Assembly (NCBI GenBank): GCA_951406725.2
Contig: OX597817.1
Location: 78,926,001 to 78,990,000, forward strand
From: Octopus vulgaris
Taxonomy: Eukaryota
Direction: 5' to 3'
DNA length: 64,000 nucleotides
Positions within the stretch are counted from its first letter, which is position 1. The number at the start of each line of letters is the position of its first letter. Positions 5,061-58,400 of this stretch are shown one piece after another. The notes below the pieces were generated by a model. The model had not been told where the DNA came from. It worked only from the letters and a program-made list of their open reading frames with translations, and searched no databases. The position numbers and the translations under genes are program-made.

Positions 5061-5450
5061 TGATTCTGATTCACATATAAGTATATATATATTTACTTTT
5101 GATGTAGGATAAAATTTTTTTCAAAAAATTTCATCAGTGGCCAGTATATTAAAATACCTTTTCAGGTGAAAATTATAAACAATTATAAGAGGGCAAAAGA
5201 AAAAAAAAAAGGGGATAGAAATTTTTTTTGCTCTTATTTATAAATATATATATGTGGGTATGTATGTGTTGTGATTTTATGTAATTATGTAGATTGTAGA
5301 AAGGCTTTCTGGTGTATTCTATAGTTCTCAGATACAGCCATTTGATTACCTAAAATAGCCATAGAATTTGAACTCGTTTCATACGACTTTGTACATCTAA
5401 ATTATAATAAAGCGTTACTGGAAAGTAAAAATGAGTGAATTCAATACTAT

Positions 5451-5497
<47 letters not shown>

Positions 5498-5501
<4 letters not shown>

Positions 5502-7543
5502 AGTAGACAAAGCCATTAGTGCAAAGAAACAGGCCTGGAAAGCCTGGAGGGATGGGGATAGCAGGGAACTGTACCAGGTAGCCAAAAGGGAGGCTGGGCG
5601 GCAGGTATACATAGTCAAAGATGTAGCAGAAAAGAAGAAGTTTGCCAATGTCCAGCGACGTGAGGACCAAAGAACTGAGGTATTTTGGATTGGTAGACAG
5701 TGTGTGAGAGAAAATAGTGATGTTACAGGAGAGAAATGTGTCCGCATGGATGATGGTGCACTTGCTTTTAATGATGGTGAGAAGAAAGAGGCTTGGAGAA
5801 GCCATTATGAAAGACTGCTGAATGTGGAGAATGAATGGGAAGAGGAGAGCCAGCCAAATGTTGACCCAGTAGATGGACCAGCTATCTGAATAGACAGCTC
5901 CCTTGTAGTTAAGGCAATTAAGGGTATGAAACCAGGTAAAGCCCCCGGCCCATCAGGAATCACTACTGAAGTAGGTGTACACCAAGGTTCAGCCCTCAGT
6001 TCCCTTTTATTCATCATAGTCCTCCAGGCAATAACAGAGGAATTCAAAACAGGTTGCCCCTGGGAGTTCCTCTATGCTGATGACCTGACTCTCATAGCAG
6101 AATCACTACTGGAACTAGAAAAGAAACTTCGGGTGTGGAAGCAAGGGTTAGAATCAAAGGGCCTTAGAGTAAATGTAGCAAAGACCAAAGTTATAGTAAG
6201 CAGAAAGGTGAACTCAGCACACACCCCCTCGGGCAGGTGGCCCTGCTCGATCTGCAGGAAAGGTGTAGGTAAAAACTCCATAAGATGTACCCAGTGTAAG
6301 CTATGGACGCATAAGAGGTGCAGCAACATCAAAGGGAAATTAACTGATAAGATAGCTTTCATGTGCGGCAGATGCACAGGGACAATAGACACCACAGACA
6401 CACAAGAAACAAATTCCATCACACTCCAGAGGGAGAAATTAGAAGTAGTTGATAGTTTCCGCTATCTGGGTGACCAAGTTAGTAGGGGAGGTGGATGCTC
6501 AGAGAGTGTCACCACTAGAATACGAATAGCCTGGGCAAAGTTCAGAAAGCTCCTACCCCTACTGGCGACAAAGGGTCTCTTACTCAGAGTGAAAGGTAGA
6601 TTGTATGATGCACGTGTGTGAACTGCCGTGCTTCACGGTAGTGAAACATGGGCTGTGACTGCAGAGGACATGCATAGACTTGAAAGAAATGAAGCTAACA
6701 TGATCCACTGGATGTGTAATGACAGTGTGCATGCACGACAGAGTGTAAGCACCCTGAGAGAAATGCTGGACATAAGAAGCATCAGATGTGGTGTGCAAGA
6801 GCGAAGCTTGTGATGGTATGGTCATGTACTGCAGATGGACGAGGAGAGATGCGTGAAGAAGTGCCGCTCCCAAACAGTTGAAGGTATCAGGGGGAGAGGT
6901 AGACCCAGGAAGACATGGGATGAGGTAGTCAAGCATGACCTCAAAGTGTTGGGCCTCACAGAGGCAATGACGAAGGACCAAGATCTCTGGAGATATGCTG
7001 TGACTGCAAAGACCCAGGCTGCTTCCTGCACCAGTTCCGCATAGTCCCTGCCCATTCAAAGTACCTTGGATTTCAGAACAACCCGCTGTGCTTGAGGAGA
7101 CCTATTGAGACATGAACATCGAAATAAATATCAATGGAAATAGTAGTTGTGCCGGCGGCACATAAAAAGCACCATCCGAACGTGGCTGATGCCAGCGCCA
7201 CCTCGACTGGCTTCTGTGCCGGTGGCATGTAAGAAGCACCATCCGAACGTGGCCGATGCCAGCGCCGCCCTGACTGACTTCTGTGCCGGTGGCACGTTAA
7301 AAGCACCAACTGATCGTGGTCGCTGCCAGACTCTCCTGGCACCTGTGCTGGTGGCATGTAAAAAGCACCCACTACACTCGTGGAGTGGTTGGCATTAGGA
7401 AGAGCATCCAGCTGTAAAAACACTGCCAGATCAGACTGGAGCCTGGTGCAGCCTCCAGGCTTCCCAGACCCCAGTCGAACCGTCCAACCTGTGCTAGTGC
7501 GGAAAACAGATGTTAAAAGATGATGATGATGATGATGATGATG
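5498..7543 (+). mobile_element. RTE-clade LINE retrotransposon; 5'-truncated, internally deleted, with nonsense stops
   Basis: ORF pieces KAPGPSGI, GVHQGSALSSLLF, LYADD (6070-6084), FRYLG, LHGSETW, RGRPRKTWDEVV are diagnostic of RTE RT and C-terminus. Stops at 5887, 6619 and 6811. 3'UTR 7045-7517 followed by a (GAT)n tail. Confidence 0.93.
5926..6621 (+). pseudogene. Reverse transcriptase fragment of the RTE LINE with embedded C4HC3 (PHD-like) finger
   Basis: QG and YADD motifs present; CSIC...CTQC...HKRC...CGRC at 6244-6375. Confidence 0.88.
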
Positions 7544-14733: not shown

Positions 14734-14995
14734 AATTTGAGGATGTAATTTTCTCTTTAGGAATTATAAAATCCTGAGATCAACTGGTGTTATCAATGAT
14801 ATATTGAGAGAATTTTCACAATATATAGAGATAAACAGTCTAATTTATAGTTATATTTACATAAGAAAATAAGTATCCACTATATATTTTCCTCTCCATT
14901 TTCTTATTTATATATAACTATATATATATGTATATATTGTACTATTTTGGGATCATCATTTTTTTTAACCATATACATATATATATACATATATA

Positions 14996-15590
14996 AAATT
15001 TTAAAATAGGATAAAATTTTTATAAGAATTTATCAAGTAGTCAGTGTGAAAAAACCTCATAAGGGAAAAATTTATCATTATTCCCTTTAAATATATTCGT
15101 ATTGAGGGCATGATAATACCTCATGATATGAGGGACTCTTAAAGTCAAAACTATCATAATAAATACAGTGTACCGAACACAAGGAAATGCAACTCTTGAA
15201 GCGAGCTCCTAAAAACAGATTTAGCTGCAAATCATATGATTTCATAGTTAGTGCACAAAATGCACTTTCTAATTGTCAGTGCAGGCATAATCAAGACATA
15301 AAAATGAGAAAAATATCAACATACCAGATCACCACCAAATGTATCCAGCATAGTATATAGAATTGTTCACACTTATATATCTATGTAAGAGACGTGCTTT
15401 TAGAATTGCATCTCGGTACACGTATTTATTCAGAATAATTCAGCACTGAATATATTCCAGTTAAGTTAAAACTTTAAAACAGTATAAAATCTTTTATAAG
15501 AATTTATCAATTAGTAATGCCCTTAATATAAATGAATATTTTCAAAAGGAATGATTATAAATTTTTCCCTTTTGAGGTTTTTTCATGCTG
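14996..15590 (-). mobile_element. Terminally redundant non-coding element (~473-bp unit) with inverted segment; Penelope pLTR/retrozyme-like
   Basis: Direct repeat 14996-15041 / 15469-15515; 15517-15590 is an inverted copy of 15042-15111; internal hammerhead-like motif. Confidence 0.65.
15225..15284 (-). ncRNA. Type I hammerhead ribozyme-like motif with one core mismatch
   Basis: Minus strand CTGCA-CTGACAA-TTAGAAAGTGCATTTTGTGCACTAACTAT-GAA-ATCATATGAT-T-TGCAG: stem I CTGCA/TGCAG, stem II AGTGCA/TGCACT, palindromic stem III; G8 is replaced by A. Confidence 0.6.
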
Positions 15591-15591
15591 A

Positions 15592-15890
15592 AAGAAGAAG
15601 AAAAATAATCAAGTGGAAATACAAAGGTTGTGGTCAATGAGGAGAGTAGAGATGATACCAATAGTAATTGGTGCACTTGGAAGTATCAGCACTTAACTAC
15701 CAGCATGACTGGAAAAGACTGGTGCAAGTGTGAAGTAGGACACCAACAAAAATCAGCATTGCTTGGAACTGCAAGAATTCTTCGCTGGGTTCATGAAGCA
15801 TGACTTGTAAACAAGTGTCACCTTAGTCTGCTGGCTATGGACCGCTGACACTTTCCATCATACCCAGCAAAATAAGCTGTGAGGTTTCAT
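15592..15890 (+). mobile_element. R4/Dong-like (RLE) LINE 3' end
   Basis: Translates to EIQRLWSMRRVEMIPIVIGALGS...QKSALLGTARILR, typical of RLE-element C-termini; compare 63300-63370. Confidence 0.8.
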
Positions 15891-17402
15891 TGCAGTTATT
15901 CCATGTTTTTAATGCCAGGTAAAATCTAAGCCAGTAAATTTATAACCAGAGGCTTTCATATTTTTTTTCCTATCAGATATTATGGAAAAGAAGGCTTTAA
16001 AATGATGATAATGATGATGATGACGACGACGATGATGATACCTGAATGATAAATAAAAAAAAGTGTCATTTGTATGGTCAATGTACTTGCTAGAAACAGT
16101 AGCCAAATTTCTCTTAACCCTTTGAATACAAAACCCACCTAAGACTGCCTCTGATTCTATGACACAAACCTCATTTAAAGTGATCTAAATTGCAACTTAT
16201 CAAAATTCTATGTCAGTTTATGTTTCAAGTACCAGCTTAATAACGACAAAGTTATTTTACTAAATTCTTCATTATTTTCAATAATTAATATACACAAAAG
16301 CAGTATTTCAACAGAAGTGTGGTGACAAAAAAGCAAAGTCAATTCCTACCATCTGAAAGAAAGAAATGAGTTGTTGTTTTACATTTTGTTAAGTCCTAAT
16401 GGTCAAAGACATTCCAGTCATAGCCATCCCATTCTTTCTTTCTTTTTTTTTGATGCCCCAGCATGGCCACAGTCTAATGACTGAAACAAATAAAAGGATG
16501 TGACATAAAGGAAATTTTACTTCTTGGAGTTTCAGTAACATCATGCATGTCCCATTCTTGAAAGATTAATGGATACCAGTTATACACTGAGTGGACTCAA
16601 TCTACATACATACACTCCACAAAAAATATTGGCCATTTACCAATTCTAAAAATAAATATTTTTATAAATTATAACCCACAATCAAGGCAACACAAAATAA
16701 TTTTTTTTAATATTGAAAAGAAAAAAAACTTGAATAACAGCAGACATATGATACATATGGTAGTCATATTTTTACTGGTCTTTTTTAAAGAAAATCTTTA
16801 CTTTAAATTCATAGTTCTGACAACATTCTCAAAAAATAAGAGAAAATAATGGTTAATTCAGGCTTTATTTTTTATGAGTTATGGAATTTTGGTAATCTCT
16901 TGGAATGCTTAACTGGAAAAGAATTGCATGTATTTAGAGAAAATGAAAAATGGTTTTGAAATAACCTTTGTAAACAATGAAATGAAATTTACAAAGAGAA
17001 GCTATTCTGACAAGACTTTTTAATTAATATTAATGGAAAGATGTCATAATTTTGTGAGTGTATGTGTAAGCATGTCTGTGTCTGTGTTTGTGGATGTGTA
17101 TGTGTGTGTATGCATGCTTATGTGTGTGAGTGTCATTGGGATAGAGAAAGAGTAGTTTCTACAGATTTAAGACTGAAAGTATATACATAAACACACATAC
17201 ATACATACATACATATAAACGCACCATACTACACAATATATCTATAGATGTATAGAGAGTTATAAGCATTTTATTTGTATACAATACCACTCTGTAGACT
17301 CCAAGAGGGATCACCAGTAACATTAATATGTATATGTGTATATATATATAAACATATATACATATGTACATATATGTATATATATGTGTGTATATATATA
17401 TA

Positions 17403-17434
<32 letters not shown>

Positions 17435-17699
17435 AAAATTGAGGGAGATAAATTAATATTAATTTTAATATCAATTTAAAACCAGTAGTCCAGCATTCAA
17501 AAAATCTGAGGAGTCAGAGAAAATTCAAATATATGTGTATATTGGCAGGGCTGGCCTGCTAGGTAGCCGGCCAGAATGCTAGAAGAAGATCATCAACGAT
17601 CAAACTACAAGGGAAATTCTCTAGAGGAAGAATTCAGCGAACACCAGAACCAACTTTGGCGGGCAGGACATATGAAAAATTAAATAAATAACAGACTTA

Positions 17700-17775
17700 A
17701 ATGCATACCTCGGTTTCGGTCTTAACAAAAGAATTACTTGCATAATTCAAGTGTCCGTGACTTCTTCAGTACATT
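17700..17775 (-). ncRNA. Minimal type I hammerhead ribozyme motif (left arm)
   Basis: Mirror image of 18318-18393. Confidence 0.7.
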
Positions 17776-18317
17776 CGGTCCTCGTGATGCAAACTACAAG
17801 ACTAACCCCAGCTCTCTGTGTCAAGACAGACACGTGCTTAGTCTTACTGATTACATCGGGAATAAAATTTCAAATGCCTTGGTTCTGGCGCGCTGAGAGA
17901 CTCCTGAAGCGAAGGACTGCAGTGAATAATTCAATGCGGATAGTGCTTACAACTAGGGAACGTATTTATTTAAATATTTAAAAATTGAGGGAGATAAATT
18001 AATATTAATTTTAATATCAATTTAAAACCAGTAGTCCAGCATTCAAAAAATCTGAGGACTACTGGTTTTAAATTGATATTAAAATTAATATTAATTTATC
18101 TCCCTCAATTTTTAAATATTTAAATAAATACGTTCCCTAGTTGTAAGCACTATCCGCAGTGAATTATTCACTGCAGTCCTTCGCTTCAGGAGTCTCTCAG
18201 CGCGCCAGAACCAAGACATTTGAAATTTTATTCCCGATGTAATCAGTAAGACTAAGCACGTGTCTGTCTTGACACAGAGAGCTGGGGTTAGTCTTGTAGT
18301 TTGCATCACGAGGACCG

Positions 18318-18393
18318 AATGTACTGAAGAAGTCACGGACACTTGAATTATGCAAGTAATTCTTTTGTTAAGACCGAAACCGAGGTATGCATT
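18318..18393 (+). ncRNA. Minimal type I hammerhead ribozyme motif (right arm)
   Basis: AATGTA-CTGAAGA-AGTC...(ACTTG/CAAGT hairpin)...GACC-GAAAC-CGAG-GTA-TGCATT; stem I 6 bp with one G-U; predicted cut after 18387. Confidence 0.7.
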
Positions 18394-18549
18394 TAAGTCT
18401 GTTATTTATTTAATTTTTCATATGTCCTGCCCGCCAAAGTTGGTTCTGGTGTTCGCTGAATTCTTCCTCTAGAGAATTTCCCTTGTAGTTTGATCGTTGA
18501 TGATCTTCTTCTAGCATTCTGCGGCTACCTAGCAGGCCAGCCTGAATAT

Positions 18550-18595
<46 letters not shown>

Positions 18596-18637
18596 ATATA
18601 TATATGTATATATATATGTATATATATGTATATATAA

Positions 18638-18680
<43 letters not shown>

Positions 18681-18693
18681 GATGTTCATATAT

Positions 18694-18820
18694 ATCATCA
18701 TCATCATCATCATTGCCAGATCAGACTGGGCCTGGTGCAGCCTTCTGGCTTCCCAGATCCCAGTTGAACCGTCCAACCCATGCTAGCATGGAAAGCAGAC
18801 GCTAAATGATGATGATGATG
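18694..18820 (+). mobile_element. Short RTE 3'UTR terminal fragment
   Basis: tgccagatcagactgggcctggtgcagcc...catgctagcatggaaagcagacgctaaat(gat)n. Confidence 0.8.
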
Positions 18821-18964
18821 ATAGATACATATATATATACATATATATATTCATATATATATACACATATATATATATATATATACATATATATATGTGT
18901 GTATATATGTTTAAATATTTGTTGTGCAAGATTTTTTATGTGATGTCGTGTGTTGAAACAGATA

Positions 18965-19410
18965 TTGTTGTATTTAGGAATGGTCATTTTGCCAGTTTAG
19001 CCAATGAAAACACACGCACTATATATTTGGTGTTACTTTGCTTCAGTGTTATTTATTTTTTACATTAATCTTTATCTTATTTCGGCCACAGTTCTTTCGT
19101 CACACTCCTGTGACCGCATCAGTGGTCCTTTGTTTTCTTCTTACTTATTTGTGTCTCTCCTTATTAACCGTCAGCCATTTTGCATTTCTACAAAATGGCT
19201 GACGGTTAGTAAGGAGAGACACAAATAAGTAAGAAGAAAACAAAGGACCACTGATGCGGTCACAGGAGTGTGACAAAAGAGCTCTGGCCAAAACAAGATT
19301 AAGATTAATGTAAAAAATAAATAACACTGAAGCAAAGTAACACCAAATATATAGTGTGTGTGTGTTTTTATTGGCTAAACTGGCAAAATGACCATTCCTA
19401 AATACAACAA
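18965..19410. mobile_element. Fold-back element, ~218-bp arms with 8-nt loop; Penelope pLTR-like family
   Basis: Arms 18965-19182 / 19191-19410; related sequence at 49063-49130 and 52330-52850; hammerhead-like motif in each arm. Confidence 0.85.
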
Positions 19411-19415
19411 AAAAA

Positions 19416-19450
<35 letters not shown>

Positions 19451-19453
<3 letters not shown>

Positions 19454-19869
19454 CTCTTTACTCTTTTACTCTTTTACTTGTTTCAGTCATTTGACTGCGG
19501 CCATGCTGGAGCACCGCCTTTAGTCGAGCAACTCAACCCCGGGACTTATTCTTTGTAAGCCCAGTACTTATTCTATCGGACTCTTTTACCGAATCGCTAA
19601 GTTACGGGGATGCAAACACACCAGCATCGGTTGTCAAGCAATGCTATGGGGATAAACACAGACACACAAACATACACACTCATTCATATATATATATACA
19701 TATATACGACAGGCTTCTTTCAGTTTCCGTCTACCAAATCCACTCACAAGGCATTGGTCGGCCAGAGGCTATAGTAGGAGACACTTGCCTAAGATGCCAC
19801 GCAGTGGGACTGAACCCGGAACCATGTGGTTGGTAAGCAAGCTACTTACCACACAGCCACTCCTGCGCT
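19451..19869 (-). mobile_element. Full-length tRNA/CORE-like SINE, family B
   Basis: Minus strand gcgcaggagtggctgtgtggtaag...gggttcagtccc...aggcaagtgtc, internal TA/TG tract, 3' body ending gactgaaacaagtaaaagagtaaaagag. Confidence 0.88.
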
Positions 19870-19884
19870 ATATATAAATATTAT

Positions 19885-20245
19885 TTGTTTCAGGCATTTG
19901 ACTGTGGCCATGCTAGAGCACCACTTTCAAGGCTTTTAGTCAAACAAATCAACACCAGGACTTATTTTTTTATCGTAGCACTTTAATCTCTTTTTCTAAA
20001 CTGCTAGGCTATGAGCCGATAAAGACACCAGCACTCGTTGGCATGCAGTGATAGGTGGACAAACCAAAGACACACTCACATACATATATGCAAATATATA
20101 TGACAGGTTTCTTTCAGTTTCCATCTAACCAAATCCATTCACAAGGCTTTGGTCAGCCTGAGAATACAGTAGAAGATACTTGCTCAAGGTGCTTCACAGT
20201 GGGACTAAAGCCAGAACCATGAGCTTGGGAAGTTTCTTACCACAC
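19885..20245 (-). mobile_element. SINE family B, older copy
   Basis: Collinear with 19451-19869. Confidence 0.8.
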
Positions 20246-20281
20246 ACACACAAATATCTACATGCATGCACAAACACACAC

Positions 20282-20316
<35 letters not shown>

Positions 20317-22077
20317 ATGCACTGTTCTGTGATGGTATAATGTAAGATCAACAAAAAATGTTGTCCATCTGGTGAGAGACAAATATTATTTAATAGCCAC
20401 AATACATATTTTTATGTGAAACTAAAAGTTTCATATGTTAAGGAAGAATATGCATAAAATATGGAGGCGAAAAACAAAAAAAGAGAAGAAAAAGTAAAGA
20501 GTAAAAATGGTAAAAGATATGATATATATCATTATCATCATCATCATCGTCATCATCAACACCATCATAAGCAGCAGCATCATTATTCTATTTATCTACA
20601 CTTTCCATATTGGCATTGGTTGGATGGGCCATCATGATCAAACCCATTAGTTATTGAGAGCCACTGTTCCCATATACCGGCGCTAGCATATGTCCTCTGG
20701 CCTATTTTATATTGCTGGATGCCCTTCCTATCACCAACCACTTCACACATGTACTGGCTACATTTTCTGATGGAATCAACATTAGGCAGATTGTATGGTC
20801 CTTCATAAGGCAAGATGCCTACAGATACCTCACTGTCCTATACTTTCTTTCCACATTTGTCAACCACTTCAAGTGTGTACAGGATGCAGTTTTCCATGGA
20901 ACCATCACTATAAAGACATCATTCTCATTTTCATCAGTCCCTTTAAATGTGGTACAGTTTGATGATTTTCTGTTTCCACACAAGTACAGAAACAAGGAGG
21001 AAAGTTGCCTTGGATCAGGTGATGCAGAGAGTACTAAGTAACCTAATAAGTGGACCAAGATGTAGGAGGTTAAATGAGAGAGTATCTTGACTGCAACATG
21101 GCCTAAAATAGGTGGAAGAAAGATGAGTGTAAGAGTAGCATGTATATTAGTTCAAATAATCAAAGTGGGGATTGGGAGGGAAAGCACAATCACATCAGAT
21201 GAACCAGAATGAGTGAGTGAGAGAAGAGGGAATATGATGTAAGAAGCAGGGTTCTTTGAGGAGTAGTGAGGAGATGTGTGATTGACAATAACCGAGGGGA
21301 TCAAGGATAAGAAAGTGTGATGAGATAAAAGGTTAGGTGGGTGATGAGTGGCAACAGAAGTGATCATAAAAGGAAAGAGTGTTAAAAGCAGAAATCTACC
21401 ACACTACATAAAGTAAATGAACTGACAATAAATGTATATTGGCCAGACTGGAATTTCATCATCAAAATGTATGTGAATATACCTGCAACAGATTTGAGAA
21501 CTTCACGTCTGAGCGATACATTTAGGTAGCCATTTAGAGAGATGCGACAATAGCAACTGTTTAATAGTACGTAAGAATGACTTTATAGTATATTGAGAAG
21601 AGGGATCAGAGTGATCCCACACAGTCACTTATAAATAAACTATGAAAGGTAAGAGAATCAAGCAGATGAGGAGTAATGAGAATGGGAAATGGGGAGGGTG
21701 TTATGATAATGACAACAGACAGAAATGCTAAGAGCAGAAGATTGTAAGCTTGGTAGGATGTAGAGATAGATTCATAGATACATATATAAGTATATAAATT
21801 GAGAAAAAGGAGGCAGTCAGAATTTTAGATGCATAATTCTTTATTAGCACTTTCGTGCATTTTTCAAACTCATTCAGACAAAATCAAAATCAAAATGGTA
21901 AAAACAGAACATTTCATTGTTTATTTATATGAATCGGATGGTTTTTTGCTTTGTTTAGAAGAGGAGAATATTGATTTTGCTTTTCTGGAAAAAGGGGGAA
22001 TGAGGGAAAGAAAAGCAAAGAAGGGGGAACAGAGAGAAAGAGAGAGGTTTCAGGACAATTAACAATGTATATATATG

Positions 22078-22124
<47 letters not shown>

Positions 22125-22439
22125 GTATAAATATATATATATGTATGTGTATATATATATGTATATATATATATATATATAAGTGTGTATATATGTATAT
22201 ATATATGCAAGTTTAAATGAAGGTTAAAATAACCACCTTAAAGGATAGAAAATATCCAATGAATTATTGGTTTGTTACCTACTAGTTTATTGTGAATAAT
22301 AATATTCCTACAATAATAGATTTCAGTATAAAACTTTGTTTATAAATATTCAAATTAAAACCTGGAAAATGGAGAAGTTGTGTTTCCAATTTGAATATTA
22401 ATTTGCATTTTAATTTGAACATGTGTGTGTGCATGTATG

Positions 22440-22471
<32 letters not shown>

Positions 22472-22483
22472 TACATATATATA

Positions 22484-22523
<40 letters not shown>

Positions 22524-22525
<2 letters not shown>

Positions 22526-22997
22526 TTATCGCCATACTAATATGGCATTCTTATAAAAATAAGAATAAAGCTGACCGCTCATTAGCTCCATGAGGCCATC
22601 GCCTTAAGTTAGCTATTTGATACACAAACTGTATCCATATAACCTTTGAACAAGGGAGGTCAGTCGCTCCACACTACTTGGCCGGCAGCTACAGACGCGT
22701 TTCGGGGTATTGCCCCTTTTCAATGCAGCATAGCCAAACCAGTAGGTGTCGCTTCTGACAATCTCTGTTCAAAGGTTTTATTTACCTAGCTTCGGTGGAA
22801 TACATCCACTTGTTTTCAATAATAGAAATATTAAAATTACTAAGTCTCTCTAAAAGAGAACAACGGCAGCATTCCCGGAAAATATTAGTTATCGCCATAC
22901 TAATATGGCATTCTTATAAAAATAAGAATAAAGCTGACCGATCATTAGCTCCATGAGGCCATCGCCTTAAGTTAGCTATTTGATACACAAACTGTAT
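22524..22997 (-). mobile_element. 363-bp terminally redundant element with hammerhead; retrozyme/Penelope pLTR-like
   Basis: 111-bp direct repeat 22524-22634 / 22887-22997 (one mismatch seen), (TA)n flanks, no ORF in the track, extensive internal self-complementarity. Confidence 0.85.
22688..22729 (-). ncRNA. Minimal type I hammerhead ribozyme, U3-A8 core variant
   Basis: Minus strand GCTGCA-TTGAAAA-GGGG-CAATA-CCCC-GAAAC-GC-GTC-TGTAGC; stems I and II pair, stem III is the palindrome ACGCGT; predicted cut between 22694 and 22693. Confidence 0.8.
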
Positions 22998-44654: not shown

Positions 44655-44761
44655 GAAGAGAGATAATATATATTTATATGTGTGTGTTATCTAACATAGG
44701 GGCTTTATATATATGTTTAAATTATTTATATTATGTATTTTTAAGTATTGAACATATCATT

Positions 44762-45035
44762 AAATCTATTGTATATAAGGCAGAAGTTACTGCAATACTA
44801 AATAATAATACAAGAGATAAGAAGACCTGTATTGGATTTTGTGAAGGAGAATTTAAAAAGCACTATCACATAGCCTCCTTCTAACATAAGGACAAAAACA
44901 AAGCTACTAAGTTGGCTAGCTACGTATGAAGTTTGAAAGAAAACAAAACACCACGTGATTAATTGGAAAATAATTGGGAAATCCATACCCTATGTTAATG
45001 GATTGAATAAATATAGACTTTGTTTAGCTGAAATG
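44762..45035 (+). pseudogene. Penelope-like element GIY-YIG endonuclease remnant
   Basis: SIVYKAEV...KTCIGFCEGEFKKHY...SF*HKDKNKATKLASYV*SLKE...INWKII...PYVNG...RLCLAE matches the IVYKA/YIG/WxI/CxLCLxEK pattern of PLE endonucleases; contains stops and a frameshift. Confidence 0.75.
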
Positions 45036-45483
45036 TGTGTATGTAATACACAAGTATATATACTAAATAATCAGCACTACTACTATTATCATCAACTTCA
45101 CTCTCATATTATATACTTGTGCTCATTAATTTTCTAAGTATTTGAAAGATTTTGCCTATACAGGTTTCGCCTCTTAACAGAAAGGTGGATTATACCATGT
45201 AATATTCTTTTGCTTTTTCCTTTTCTTTACCTATCTATAGATTATTGACTTAACAATTAGAGTCTACCTTAGTTTCTATGTTGCAATGTCCCTTAAGAGT
45301 TTATGCCTATGTACATACAATGTTAGAATATCACCAGTCATATTTTTCCTACGATTATTTATAATGCATGTAGTTGTACACATATTATTCATGTTCATGC
45401 TGTCATGTGAGGCATCATTAATACAATGACAATAGCCTAAATTTTCCGTCTGTGAATACACAGTAAATTATACCGACTGCAAT

Positions 45484-49025: not shown

Positions 49026-49062
<37 letters not shown>

Positions 49063-49064
<2 letters not shown>

Positions 49065-50001
49065 TTGTTATATTTCAGAATGGTCATTATTGTTTTTCCG
49101 AATAAACACACTATATTTGTTCATCACTTCAGATACTTTATTTTCCTTACTTTGTCTCAAAATCTTTCATCATACATCGTGTCCTTCTTTAGCAACTTTG
49201 CATTCTACATGGCAACTGCTCTGTTTAGTCCATTCAGCTTTCTATGGTGCATATCGTAATCTGTACGTGTGTTTGCAGCTGTATCTGTGTGTGTGTGTGT
49301 ATGGGTTTGCTTACTATAGTGCATGTTCCATGTCCTTCAGTTTTTTTTTCATTTATGTACTTATCTGTTATCCCTCATTACATCTCAGAAGTGTGTATGT
49401 GTGCCTTTTGTGTGTGTGTGTGTGTGTGTGTGTTTGTATACGTGTTTATGCATTATATTGTTTGTACATGTGTCCTTGCTTCTCTCATTCTGTCTCTAGT
49501 CATTATGTTGTGTAATGTTTAGGCGGGCAGTTATTGTTCCATTTGTATTTTCTGTTGAGGCTCGATCTGTCTATTACTATATGTATGGCCTCTGCAATAA
49601 ATCTTAGTGTTGTGCCTGCTCTTTGTTATTAACTGAGCCTCTATTAATTGAGCATGTTGGTAGAGCACTGACAAGCTTTTCTCCTTGAGCTTCAGCCAGT
49701 ATTCATCTTGCCGCTCACCTATGCTATGTGCTGTCTCCTCAATGTAATTTGTTGTGTTGTTTTTGTTTCTGTACCATCCCTCAGTACACTGCATGCTATA
49801 GACAACATTCCTAATATTACAGTTAATCTGTGGGCTCATCCTACATGCTATACAATTGTTCTTCATACACAGGGTCCTTTTGAATGGCTTTGTTCTACAG
49901 ATTAAGGATTTTATGGGGGTTCCTAGCCTTTCTACTACTTTAATCTGTAGATTTGCTTTATCAAGTGTTTTCCTTGAAAATCTTGGTTTGTTAATGGATT
50001 G
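49063..50001 (-). mobile_element. Penelope-like element 3' remnant (GIY-YIG plus pLTR-like sequence)
   Basis: Minus ORF 49531-49866: CIAC...NCNIRNVVYSMQC...YIEETAHSIGERQDEY (Cys-rich linker plus GIY-YIG pattern); downstream 49063-49130 matches the 18965 family. Confidence 0.78.
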
Positions 50002-52329: not shown

Positions 52330-52850
52330 TAATGTTATATTCAGGAATGATCATTTTGCCAATAAACACATGCACTATTTATTTGATTTTTCACTTTACC
52401 TTTATTATTATTAACTATTGTTTATTTGTTAGGGTTCTTTTGTCACACATTCTATGAAACCTTCAATGACTATCTGTTCTTCTTCTCTGTGTCTCCTTTT
52501 CTCTTAGGCCTTGTTCTGTTCATTCCATCTTATCTTTCTTTGGTATGTATCTCTATTTTCACATGCATTTGCTTCTGTGTCTCTGTGTGTGTCTATATGT
52601 TTAGCATCTATATATGTGTATCTTGCATGCATATGTATAGATTTGTATATAACATTGTTATATATCTGCATGAACAGATAGAGATACATTCCACAGAAAG
52701 ATAAAATGAAATAGAGAAGACATGAGGAGACATGGAGAAGAACAGAGTCAGTTAAGGGTTCACAAAATGTGTGACGAAAGAACTCTGATAAATAAACAAA
52801 ACCTGTTTCAACACACAATTTCCCATCAAGAATCTCGCAAAACAAATACA
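52330..52850. mobile_element. Two inverted, decayed copies of the 18965 pLTR-like family
   Basis: 52330-52500 matches the left arm; 52715-52850 is in the opposite orientation, containing gtgtgacgaaagaactctga. Confidence 0.6.
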
Positions 52851-54439
52851 TAAACTTAATAATAATCAGTCATTTAATTAAACTAATGGCTAGTTTCAAC
52901 ATTCAGTTGGATACATATCTTTGAAGGGAAGTAATTCTACATGACATTTAGTCTTCATGTAACTACACATATACTTATGGACACATAATTATATTTTAAC
53001 CCTTCTGATATCAACGCACCTAAGGCTGCTGTTGGTTCTATGATACAAACCTTATGTTTTAAGCTGATCTCTATGAAAACCTGCCACCAAAATTCCATAT
53101 TAATTAATATTCCAATCACAAGCTTAATAATAACCAAGATATTTTACCTCAAAGTAGATAAAGCTATAAATAATAATATGTCAATATTGGGTTAAAATTC
53201 CTTTTATATAGAAAAATTCAAAGGCAGTTTGTGAAGCCAGTTATTTTGACAAGAGGTATAGGCTTGTGCACCATGGGAAGCCTACTACATTTTTTATCCA
53301 AAAGCATCTTCAAACCAAATATTTACATGCTATTTATTTATAGCTTATCTGCTTCAAGATCCAACATTCCAGAAAGAATTATTGCATATTCTCTTGAAGT
53401 TTATAAATTCTTATGACCTTAACAATAACTAAGTTATTTTACTAAATTTATTATTATTATCAAAATTAATTGAAATAGAGGCAATGTATCTCAAAAGAAA
53501 AATGGTATCAAAGGGGTTAAAAAGCATATTAAAAATTCAAAGAATGAAAAATTAAAAATTAGCAATTGAAAATCCTATAAAAGAAGACTTGAGTTTGGCA
53601 AGCTGCTTAACTAAAGTGAAGGGCAGCACTGTGCTAAAGAAGAGGAAAATTATTGTGCAGAAAGACAGGCCATCTTTTCTAAATCTCTGATGAGAATTAC
53701 TTTCTGCAGCAAGAAAATCATCTGAATCATTTGGTATCAAAAAAAAAAAAAATAACAGAAGTAGAAGGATTTAAAGAAATAATCCAGATTGTTGCAGCCT
53801 GTTCTTTTGAACAGTTCACAAAATATTACAACACTTGTAAAAAGGTAATGGTTCACCCCTTTAAAATGGTTCAGCATCCTTTAGAATAAGCTGATACATG
53901 CTTACAATGTCTTTCAGCTCATGGAAAAACTCAATCAGCGCTTCTCTGATATGGTTCATTTTCCCATTTAGATTTTTTGCATTCTCTCCTGATGACCCAA
54001 TAAACTTGCTAGCATCTGGTATGCAGAGATTTCAACTAGTAGCACTTGCATACTCTTTACTCTTTTAGTTGTTTCAGTCATTTGACTGTGGCCATGCTGG
54101 AGTACCACCTTTAGTCGAGCATTCATCTCCTGGTCCGTAGAAATATACAAACATACAATTTCCTCAACAATAAGCTCTTGATGCAAAACATTTCAAAATC
54201 CATTGAAGAGAAAAGATTAGGTGACAATACTCTTCAAGAAAACGGCAAGCCTCACTTTACATCTAGACCACTTTAATTTCAGCATTAAATATTATACTTA
54301 GCATCTGTAGTTGTGGAGTGATTACTCCAAAACTCTTTTAACATCAAATCACTAAACAAAGTCACTTCAAAACTAACCCTGATTAGATGGATTGTATAAA
54401 CTTTCTTAAAACATTCTATGACTTGCTGAACCATAAACT

Positions 54440-56670: not shown

Positions 56671-57592
56671 AATGTACATATCTATCTCACAGTCTATCTC
56701 CCACTCCTTCTCTTTCTCCTCCTCTCTCTCCCCTGTGTGTGTATTGATGGATTTATGTTTGGATGTATGTATTCAATGCATGAATAATTGAATAGAAAAT
56801 ACTACTTATAAAAACATTATAGTTACATAATGTCGCAAAGGTTAGAGATTAGCATTGTGATGACACAATAGATTAACCTGTTTTATACATGACTGATATG
56901 ATTGACTGATGAAGCAAAGATTTATAATTCACAGAATAACAAGTACTTGTTGAGATTTTTAAAAGAATAAATCAACGAAGCAAGCCAGCCCATAATGAAT
57001 GAGAATGACAACTTTAATATCATTTGTTCATATTATTTAACCCCAAGTCAACTTTTATTGAGCTTGCTAAAGACAGTTATATCATGTACATTTTTTTATT
57101 TTTATTATTATTTTTGTTGACTTTTTTGTTTTTGGAAATATTGTACTTGGGACAAAATTATGTAATGTCCTGTCTGAAGACATTACAATAAAGAATTAGC
57201 TGTTATTTCTAGCAAGCCAAAGACTCCTTTAAATAACACATTCCTTGGCTCATATGATGTGCATCGCAGGTCTGTATGGAATATATTAGTTACCATTCTT
57301 TTTTTCTACAAGACACATAATGTCTGAAATTTGCTAAGGAAAGGGCTAGCTGGTTATTACATTGACTGATATATATCTATCAACCCTAAAAGGATGAAAG
57401 GCAAAGTAGACCACAGCAGAATTTGAACTCAGAACATAAAGATGGACAAAATGATGGTTCACATTTTCTGCTAACAATTCTGCCAGCTTGACCCTCGGAA
57501 CATATCACACACACACTCACATATTGGCTGTACTACACTATTATTTGAAACCTCCTCTGATATGTAGCATTTTATGATGCTACTGCCCTCAT

Positions 57593-58400
57593 CTATGTTT
57601 CCTGCTGTGAAGTAGGCTCAGCTGCAATCCTTGACAGGAGGAGATCCAGTTTTGTTTTGAAGACACCTACATCAACACCATGCAGGTCTCTCAGGCATTT
57701 TGGAAGGATATTGAAGAGCTGTGGGACCCTGAAACACAAGGTGTTGCAGTATCTAGTCCTGTATTTTGATGGTGATGCTGTGATCTTTGGTACTATGCCT
57801 TCCAAGATTTTCCCAATGTATATCACTGCATATTTTCCTCCATATGTTCTAGGGAGAAGAGTTTTAACTCTTTCAGTCTTTCCCAGTAGCTGGTATGTTG
57901 TATTGAGATGATTTTCTTTGTGTAGCTTCATTGGATCACTTCGAGTTCTGCCATTAATTTTGTATTGTGTGGTGACCATAGTTGGGACCAGTAGTCCAAG
58001 TGGCTGAGGACATATGCCATCCAAAGGACCATCATTGTCTCATTTTCTCTCACTTTGAAAGTTTGGAGAATCCATCCAGCTAGTCGTCTGCATTTTATTA
58101 TCAAATTAATAATATGCACCTGGAAAGATGCATCATTGCGCATGCCAATGCCCAAGTCATGCACTGATTTTGGTTATGCGATTGCAGTTCCTCCTATGCC
58201 AGCGTATCCTGTTTGCATGTCGTTGAGCTTTGTGTACTGGTAGTGCAGGGCTTGGAATTTTCCTGCATTAAACTACATGTTGTTGTCCTCAGCCGACCTG
58301 TGTATTGTATCCAACTTCTGTTACAGATGTGCAATATTTCCTGGATTTTGTATTGTATGAGAGACTTTTTTGTTATATGTATATGCTCCCATTTCTAAAA
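57593..58400 (-). mobile_element. CR1-clade (Zenon-like) LINE ORF2 C-terminal remnant
   Basis: DLGI...HIINLIIKCRRLAGWILQTF...LDYWSQLWSP...LEVIQ and FNILPKCLRDL...FKTKLDLLLSRI, in shifted frames. Confidence 0.82.

Follow-up and report, generated by a model that had tools for sequence, protein, structure and literature searches.

Three of the four neighbouring insertions that lie between positions 14994 and 22997 of the window, a stretch of 64,000 nucleotides from Octopus vulgaris, are non-LTR retrozymes or non-autonomous Penelope-like elements (PLEs), a known class for which the concept has already been published. These three, E1, E2 and E4, are protein-less and likely mobilised in trans by a PLE, with a ribozyme-made circle as the likely template, and the remaining insertion, E3, is a truncated PLE end. 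On balance, this combined reading is favoured; the identity of the elements and their PLE-type insertion are held with high confidence. The initial annotation had described all four as a candidate retrozyme/Penelope-satellite system, which applies to E1, E2 and E4 as tandem, ORF-less elements with conserved hammerhead and PLE-type ends and does not apply to E3. The families may already be catalogued (Dfam, Repbase). From each search, the 40 candidates with the highest scores were used as loci, which biases the sample to young, similar copies.

Architecture of the four elements

All four are genuine elements, each from a dispersed multi-copy family, and they are mutually unrelated: in agreement with the absence of shared primary sequence noted in the initial annotation, none of the pairwise unit comparisons reached significance (lowest E about 0.09). 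E1 (14994..15515, minus strand) comprises a 474-nt unit and a 49-nt partial second unit, its 3' end with tail lying at 14994; the terminal redundancy of 49 nt is 90% identical at a spacing of about 474 nt. A short inverted arm (15517..15591, plus strand) corresponds to unit positions 48-118. The E1 family is old, ORF-less and tandem, with other copies being 80-89% identical. The first arm of E2 (17433..18058, minus strand) contains a 546-nt unit plus 80 nt and begins at the tail-including 3' end (tail at 17433-17528, minus strand), and its second, inverted arm (18056..18559, plus strand) begins at the tail-less 3' end at unit position 97. E4 (22524..22997, minus strand) features a 363-nt unit plus about 111-118 nt and a tail-less 3' end at 22524, the tail sequence (22819-22886, minus strand) being located inside the unit. 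Its family is very young, ORF-less and tandem, the best copies being 98-99% identical. The more-than-unit lengths originally reported for these three elements were thereby recovered. E3, in turn, was correctly recognised as a fold-back form: a first arm (18914..19186, minus strand), which is the 3' pLTR end of an autonomous-type PLE and carries a tail of 49 nt (18914-18962, minus strand), faces a second, inverted and tail-less arm (19191..19412, plus strand) as fold-back partner. Its start, formerly placed at 18965, was corrected to 18914.

Hammerhead motifs and their conservation

A strict type I scan gave three matches in 14996-22997, compared with 0.02 on average for 50 shuffled versions. 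These are the E2 motif 17769..17706 on the minus strand, its inverted copy and the E4 motif 22723..22694 on the minus strand, so that two of the four annotated hammerheads are strict matches in the window copies of their elements and those of E1 and E3 fail the scan. The E2 type I hammerhead (17699..17776, minus strand; predicted cut after 17706) has a long stem II and recurs within the inverted arm (18317-18394, plus strand). The minimal type I hammerhead of E4 (22688..22729, minus strand; predicted cut after 22694), the only motif of the window copy, shows a palindromic stem III and a U3-A8 core, a variant that has been described before (PMC4209133). The E1 window copy likewise holds a single motif (15224..15285, minus strand; predicted cut after 15230), the core of which is broken by a G8A exchange. 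In the atypical E3 hammerhead (19084-19128, minus strand, in the first arm), the family carries C at position 9, and the window arms differ from each other, one having G17 and the other A12.

Within the families, the core is intact in 69 of 71 E4, 66 of 70 E2 and 23 of 35 E1 segments. The only common core variation concerns N7 (36 A to 34 U in E2), and N17 was never G across the E1 family. The comparison with Rfam, which the initial annotation had proposed, yielded no match to a hammerhead model, neither at the gathering score nor among the 113 matches at E<=10. As to stem covariation, the lack of which, together with a lack of cleavage, would have refuted the ribozyme reading according to the initial annotation, older sister families diverged by 22-35% retain the E2 and E4 hammerheads, and changes in their stems are compensatory. 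These include three double changes in stem I of the E2 sister and the replacement of the first stem II pair, G-C, by A-U in the E4 relatives, where the motif could be parsed in 26 of 29 sequences. The hammerhead thus appears to be under selection. Moreover, the units of the three tandem families (GC 0.40, 0.39 and 0.31) are predicted to fold far more stably than shuffled sequences (z -7.5, -3.1 and -5.4). Assembled contigs from runs presumed to be RNA cover E4 fully and E2 largely, a type of record that is silent on ends, strand, circles and expression.

Ends, arms and arrays

The marks of PLE-type insertion, i.e., a tail at one end, an inverted head-to-head arm, 5' truncation and a (TA)n target, occur in all four families. 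The TA-rich flanks described initially were confirmed for 3' ends in 56 of 63 (E4), 56 of 70 (E2) and 18 of 40 cases (E1), compared with 4.5% of random positions. Each family features two fixed 3' ends which differ by the PLE tail. Circularly permuted ends, suggested in the initial annotation as support for a circular template, were rejected, the copy ends being fixed at these two sites. The test is not diagnostic of a circle, since internal initiation by PLEs gives fixed ends on a circular as well as on a linear template (PMC11167929). Two-armed inserts combine one tail-bearing and one tail-less end in 25 of 27 E4 (p 3e-6), 16 of 17 E2 (p 1e-4), 5 of 6 E1 and 10 of 10 E3 classifiable events. 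Which of the arms reaches further 5' varies (10:15 in E4, 7:9 in E2), and the two arms of an insert usually have the same alleles, with neither being nested in the other. This combination suggests that both target strands were primed. As a general rule, the derivation of one arm by copy-back from its partner was rejected because of the missing nesting; likewise, in the non-tandem E3 loci L099 and L104, neither arm copies the other, as each holds sequence that the other lacks. Head-to-head junctions mostly lie over 2-6 nt of microhomology.

Arms extend up to 4.3 units in E4, 2.9 in E2 and 1.9 in E1. Read-through at the cut site is seamless, with indels in 1 of 73 and 0 of 78 cases, and 5' ends coincide with the predicted cut in 1 of 63, 2 of 70 and 0 of 40 cases in the E4, E2 and E1 families (1.9, 1.4 and 0.9 expected). 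A linear cut-to-cut monomer as template was rejected for lack of a 5'-end pile-up at the cut. Subfamily alleles are mostly array-wide: three mixed array-site cases were observed in E4 versus about 38 expected for independent units, and E4 divergence amounts to 0.54% within arms and 1.27% between arrays. Seamless arrays of up to 4.3 units with array-wide alleles fit a circular template. Several arrays are not homogeneous, comprising a period-2 alternation (L013), mosaics (L029, L135) and arms from different subfamilies (L162), and at site 365 of E2, mixed states occur in 6 of 16 arrays, which indicates that more than one template unit is used at times.

Coding content and the autonomous partner

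The search for ORFs covered flanks of 1.5 kb with protein probes from two PLE families. No attached PLE ORF was found in 34 E4, 48 E2 and 29 E1 events (111 distinct), nor at the sister-family loci (30+20 for E2, 30 for E4), and no PLE protein match was found inside the E1, E2 and E4 arrays. Two unlinked ORF pieces lie nearby at L006 and L081. Of the frames with at least 90 aa, only one lies within a unit; it is found in E2, runs from stop to stop over 97 aa and is antisense to the hammerhead. None of these elements has an LTR pair. Accordingly, the claim that the four lack a credible ORF stands for E1, E2 and E4; it does not for E3, as 9 of 30 loci of this family run into an RT/GIY-YIG ORF within 1.5 kb. 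In this family, hammerhead and ORF are on the same strand and each fixed end is a 3' end, which anchors the orientation. By Pfam, the ORF matches RVT_1 (E 8e-5) and GIY-YIG (E 8e-4), both below the curated cut-offs, and its Atlas neighbours carry RVT_1 and HTH_animal. The ORF copies are frameshifted or truncated, and a PDB sequence search with the RT piece gave a best E of only 0.095. A CX2-5CxxC motif, which upstream of GIY-YIG is one criterion of the Neptune/Nematis clade beside RT phylogeny (PMC8557442), is visible in the E3-family translation. What the window holds of this family, E3, is a truncated and folded-back 3' terminus of a PLE that encodes RT and GIY-YIG.

The GIY-YIG remnants at 44762 and 49531, named initially as a possible mobilising partner, are indeed PLE pieces. 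The latter is 52% identical to the E3-family endonuclease, and the former belongs to a different PLE family with its own pLTR hammerhead (20 loci). The pLTR of the 44762 family did not match E2, E3 or E4; three weak E1 matches at loci of this family were not traced to the pLTR. An autonomous PLE with the E1, E2 or E4 tail was found by none of three routes, namely the 44762 family, tail-sharing relatives and an older E4 relative. Two tail-sharing relatives, suggested by loose contig ends, led to an E2 sister family (155 exact matches), which is ORF-less, and to one short E4-like copy; the older E4 relative is ORF-less as well.

Proposed mechanism

A tandem copy would be transcribed and cut by its hammerheads, and a host ligase would close the monomer, steps shown only for retrozymes of other animals. 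The PLE protein would then nick both strands of a (TA)n target, in keeping with the observed TA-rich ends. Reverse transcription would begin internally at two fixed positions separated by 49-121 nt, each serving one of the target strands; the fixed ends and their pairing are observed, and the strand assignment is presumed. Each cDNA would proceed through the cut site to a variable stop, the observed arms measuring 0.06-4.3 units, and the two cDNAs would join head to head, probably by annealing over the microhomology present at most junctions. The four copies landed independently in a TA-rich stretch.

Tentatively, all of this may be condensed into a single event, in which a dimer of the RT/endonuclease nicks both (TA)n strands and makes two cDNAs on one circular RNA, with one subunit on each side of the tail; the copies of these families would then be a record of how PLEs integrate. 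In repeated waves, ORF-less circles would subsequently have hijacked PLEs, while selection preserved the ribozyme. If true, the one event would yield tail asymmetry, head-to-head inversion and more-than-unit tandems, and the very young E4 family with its 363-nt unit would lend itself to proving circle-templated TPRT.

Alternative explanations

Against the proposed mechanism stand results on the one PLE reconstituted in vitro, for which hammerhead mutants were without effect on insertion, uncut RNA was the main substrate and the start site was the same on both strands (PMC11167929). In Xenopus, 8 of 9 retrozyme dimers were uncleaved (bioRxiv 10.64898/2026.07.22.740005). The same elements and enzyme could use an uncut linear read-through of a multi-unit array, or jump between linear RNAs, which equally predicts that 3' ends are fixed, that read-through is seamless and that 5' stops are random, accounts for mosaic and period-2 arrays and could draw on the multi-unit source arrays that exist in the genome. 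This explanation is nevertheless regarded as rather unlikely. Many subfamilies have alleles fixed in all units, including non-CpG alleles confined to one sampled array (3 in E4, 11 in E2), which requires repeated passage through a single unit; moreover, the arrays showed no upstream flank in common, and the retention of hammerheads with compensatory changes in ORF-less lineages would be left unexplained. Insertion of monomers that later became tandem by unequal crossover or slippage in a satellite-like manner, as discussed elsewhere (bioRxiv 10.64898/2026.07.22.740005), would yield homogeneous arrays and period-2 patterns as well. It is very improbable, since dispersed arrays of about 99% identity with two fixed 3' starts and arbitrary 5' stops, and insertions in which both arms can be multi-unit, bear the signature of reverse transcription.

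A little less probable still is a reading of all four as pLTRs from autonomous PLEs, either solo or truncated, with the redundancy being the usual partial tandem. The initial annotation had named fixed ends attached to PLE ORFs as the mark of ordinary pLTRs, and this is what was found for E3; in addition, the flanks and probes searched were confined to the scope given above. Copies of E1, E2 and E4 that exceed one unit, however, enter another unit and never a common new sequence, and the sister families behave alike. Finally, a single functional cluster or system made up of these neighbours has a next to negligible probability, although four in 8 kb are more than the background predicts (rough Poisson estimate of 8e-4 for an 8-kb tile). 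The families are unrelated, differ in age and have dispersed other copies, and among the loci fetched all four were never seen together elsewhere. With about 21 intact-motif loci in 600 kb of arbitrary DNA, i.e., about one per 30 kb and by extrapolation tens of thousands of motifs genome-wide, some hundreds of such tiles are to be expected, and the stretch holds 23 (TA)5+ tracts versus a mean of 8.9. The supposed system is a moderate local excess, not one unit: the cluster consists of independent insertions into (TA)n-rich DNA.

Comparison with known systems

Two questions are stated to be open, namely in what way PLEs give rise to their tandem or inverted copies and whether the templates are indeed circles of retrozymes (PMC8557442; bioRxiv 10.64898/2026.07.22.740005). 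The octopus elements offer a test case here, as near-strict start-site pairing, alleles common to both arms and alleles that span whole arrays provide countable predictions and E4 is young enough for an assay. The non-autonomous elements of Chlamys, e.g., MRC1, are likewise ORF-less PLE derivatives with pLTRs and multicopy head-to-tail insertions; they differ in having no canonical hammerhead and in 3' ends that match known autonomous partners, none of which was matched for E1, E2 and E4 (PMC8557442). Canonical EN+ PLEs (PMC4209133, PMC3846280, PMC8557442, PMC11167929), the pLTR of which bears a minimal hammerhead and a tail, agree with the octopus elements in having two fixed 3' ends, a tail restricted to one of the inverted arms, 5' truncation, an inversion that is head to head and (TA)n targets. 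Unlike these PLEs, E1, E2 and E4 are without ORF, and the tails measure 49-121 nt compared with the 30-40 nt described. Metazoan non-LTR retrozymes (PMC7229834; bioRxiv 10.64898/2026.07.22.740005) resemble E1, E2 and E4 in that they lack ORFs and consist of tandem units which measure a few hundred nt and each contain a single type I hammerhead; GC below 50%, strong self-pairing, coexistence with PLEs and mostly short arrays are further common features. The 546 nt of E2 exceed the range of 150-450 nt given in 2020 (PMC7229834) but fall within the more recent one of 51-972 nt (bioRxiv 10.64898/2026.07.22.740005). In contrast to published retrozymes, the hammerheads described here are of the minimal PLE kind with U3-A8 core and long stem II, and the genomic copies show PLE tails and head-to-head arms.

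Four elements and their families

In the 2.8-Gb host genome, self-comparison of the window resolved E1 at 14994-15515 (a 474-nt unit plus 49 nt, with an inverted piece at 15517-15591), E2 at 17433-18058 (546 plus 80 nt, then an inverted arm to 18559), E3 at 18914-19412 (a fold-back) and E4 at 22524-22997 (363 plus about 111-118 nt). Their structure upheld the view of the initial annotation that they are of more than unit length or folded back, and comparison of the four with each other found no significant sequence similarity, in line with its view that they are mutually unrelated. Searches of the same genome gave 855 (E4), 1460 (E2), 1799 (E1) and 1150 (E3) first-look candidates, totals which are not copy numbers; the best 40 were scored per search, the scored loci being biased to similar copies, and two extra short-query searches reduced the length bias. 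Removal of overlapping loci left 34 distinct events for E4, 48 for E2 and 29 for E1, and in none of these was an ORF of a Penelope-like element (PLE) attached to the copies. Two ORF hits in flanks (loci L006 and L081) are separated from the arrays by some hundreds of bases. Copies exceeding one unit run into another unit, with up to 4.3 units per arm. E3 is the truncated 3' terminal repeat (pLTR) of an ordinary PLE, and its family sets the orientation: hammerheads lie on the sense strand, and the ends that stay fixed are the 3' ones. The proposed retrozyme or PLE-satellite identity thus holds for the ORF-less E1, E2 and E4 and fails for E3; the elements are real: three add new members to an already published class, the fourth is the end of an ordinary PLE, and there is no new system. 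A long, frameshifted PLE of the E3 family (L121 3878-5549; G000:C5:90020553-90024256) carries inverted pLTR arms 3.5 kb apart.

Hammerhead motifs

The hammerheads ascribed to all four elements were recovered by a strict type I scan in E4 and both E2 arms (3 hits vs 0.02 in shuffles) and missed in the E1 and E3 copies of the window; Rfam, suggested as a check, gave no hammerhead match. The E4 motif, with palindromic stem III and the U3-A8 core variant reported for PLEs (PMC4209133), is intact in 69/71 segments, and that of E2, with a long stem II, in 66/70, common core variation being confined to free position 7 (36 A, 34 U). For the E1 family the count is 23 of 35; N17 varies among C, U and A and is never G. 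The E1 copy in the window carries G8A in its core. Members of the E3 family have C at position 9 and are identical across the motif in 23 of 30 copies; each window arm adds one further core change. Since the fold is kept in older, ORF-less tandem sister families of E2 and E4 despite double changes, the motif is probably under selection, cleavage being predicted from sequence. The E2 sister (about 65-70% identical; motif parsed 23 times in 30 loci) differs in stem II and by three double changes in stem I, and the relatives of E4, at 87% and 78%, show A-U in place of G-C as the first pair of stem II and vary at N7 (26/29 parsed). At L034 2206-2740 (G000:C5:16624080-16624613), an 86%-identical unit of an E2 subfamily adjoins a young E2 array in tandem; stem II of its hammerhead has an A-U pair at the base.

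Fixed ends and the template

Instead of the circularly permuted ends for which a check had been suggested, each family has two fixed 3' ends, spaced 68 nt (E4), 96 nt (E2), about 121 nt (E1) and 49 nt (E3) apart and set away from the predicted cut, 115-273 nt downstream. The stretch between them is the PLE tail, shown to lie between two internal RT start sites (PMC11167929). Where both ends of a two-armed insert could be classified, a tail end was paired with a tail-less one in 25/27 cases for E4 (2 more unclassifiable), 16/17 for E2 (6 more unclassifiable, 1 cut by the locus edge), 5/6 for E1 (5 more unclassifiable) and 10/10 for E3 (1 more unclassifiable). A tail on only one inverted arm was noted earlier in qualitative terms (PMC3846280; PMC8557442). 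A decayed fold-back at 52330-52858, 70-80% identical to E3, likewise has the tail on one arm only.

The 5' stops show no accumulation at the cut (1/63 in E4, 2/70 in E2, 0/40 in E1), which is read through scar-free, with indels in 1/73 and 0/78 cases for E4 and E2 and 4/36 in old E1; the template was thus either an uncut multimer or a circle closed by ligation. Alleles are mostly array-wide (in E4, 3 mixed cases vs about 38 expected), and divergence within arms is below that between arrays (0.54% vs 1.27% in E4, 0.94% vs 1.75% in E2), which implies repeated single-unit bottlenecks such as a circle would give. From these patterns a circle is favoured with moderate confidence. Linear read-through of an uncut multimer is less probable. 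L013, L029, L135 and L162 speak against a pure monomer circle. At L013 (G000:C16:8589180-8590945), an E4 array of period 2, the allele switches from each unit to the next in both arms, a pattern expected of a circle that is dimeric or of an ABAB source. At E2 unit positions 363-365 (window 17795-17797), inside an imperfect inverted repeat, one and the same change is seen repeatedly in isolated units across many arrays, likely marking a mutation hot spot.

Genomic background

Sixty arbitrary 10-kb stretches contained 27 intact motifs, which by hand count make up 21 loci from many families, vs 3 in shuffles. Just two of the four window elements carry an intact motif, and the probability of at least two per 8 kb is 0.03; four elements of any state are expected in about 8e-4 of 8-kb tiles by a rough rate, or some hundreds of tiles genome-wide. 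The 8-kb stretch holds 23 (TA)5+ tracts vs a mean of 8.9; the count of 23 is equalled in 6/60 background stretches. Given this background rate, the TA-tract excess and the unequal ages of the families, independent insertion into a favoured target is the best reading of the cluster, and the idea of four neighbours forming one system was abandoned. In 600 kb of arbitrary genome there are at least a dozen more hammerhead families (L253-L312), and many of these show inverted pairs and a stem III that is palindromic.

Among further remnants, a second PLE family, also abundant (150 scored matches of 1904 candidates), is represented at 44753-45100 (+) by a decayed GIY-YIG end; copies of this family bear a pLTR hammerhead of their own about 600 nt downstream. 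A short piece at 20310-20445 (-) matches the 3' end of this pLTR at 74% and is the fifth PLE-derived piece within the 8-kb stretch. An older relative of the E3 family lies at 49060-49983 (-), where a GIY-YIG piece of 52% identity precedes the decayed end of a pLTR, and LINE-type reverse transcriptase remnants were recognized by eye from translations at 5401-7101 (+) and 57561-58039 (-). Elsewhere, five GIY-YIG hits of the second family within 37 kb (G000:C1:206266433-206302986), including two pairs about 1.8 kb apart, possibly form a tandem cluster.

Proposed insertion mechanism and relation to known systems

Which arm is longer varies (10:15 in E4, 7:9 in E2, 5:0 in E1), and at E3 loci L099 and L104 each arm holds sequence absent from its partner. 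Arm junctions mostly overlap by 2-6 nt, an overlap being present in 25/29 E4 and 14/23 E2 cases. Arms agree at subfamily sites in 6/6 informative E4 events; for E2, 4/8 are fully concordant, two differ only at recurrent site 365 and two (L041, L162) are discordant. Probably two cDNAs were made, each primed on a different target strand, and then joined through microhomology. A possible alternative, put forward in PMC3846280, is that the element primes itself on an antisense template. Under two-strand priming, we tentatively suggest, as an account that is rather doubtful as a whole, that one dimer nicks both (TA)n strands and primes two cDNAs on one circular RNA, which would yield tail asymmetry, inversion and tandems, and that ORF-less circles would persist through successive PLE waves, the ribozyme being kept by selection. 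Two by-products are worth keeping: counts of how the two start sites are paired, and a family of very recent origin with which circle-templated insertion could be tested.

Minimal PLE hammerheads have been described and circular templates proposed (PMC4209133; one of its two supplementary files has no octopus entry). Non-LTR retrozymes were defined in PMC7229834, with circles shown in coral, mussel and axolotl, and have been argued to be non-autonomous PLEs (bioRxiv 10.64898/2026.07.22.740005). The accessible part of the octopus repeat annotation (PMC13282606) lists Penelope families and lacks the word 'ribozyme'. Searches on octopus retrozymes and cephalopod hammerheads yielded nothing about these families, and those on PLE tails and inversion no tally of how often the two start sites are used as a pair, the coverage being mostly outside subscription journals and, for the former, outside Dfam and Repbase. 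Opposite-strand priming agrees with the both-strand nicking and predicted dimer of the PLE described in PMC11167929; no difference in start site between the strands was seen there, unlike the strand-paired start sites suggested here.
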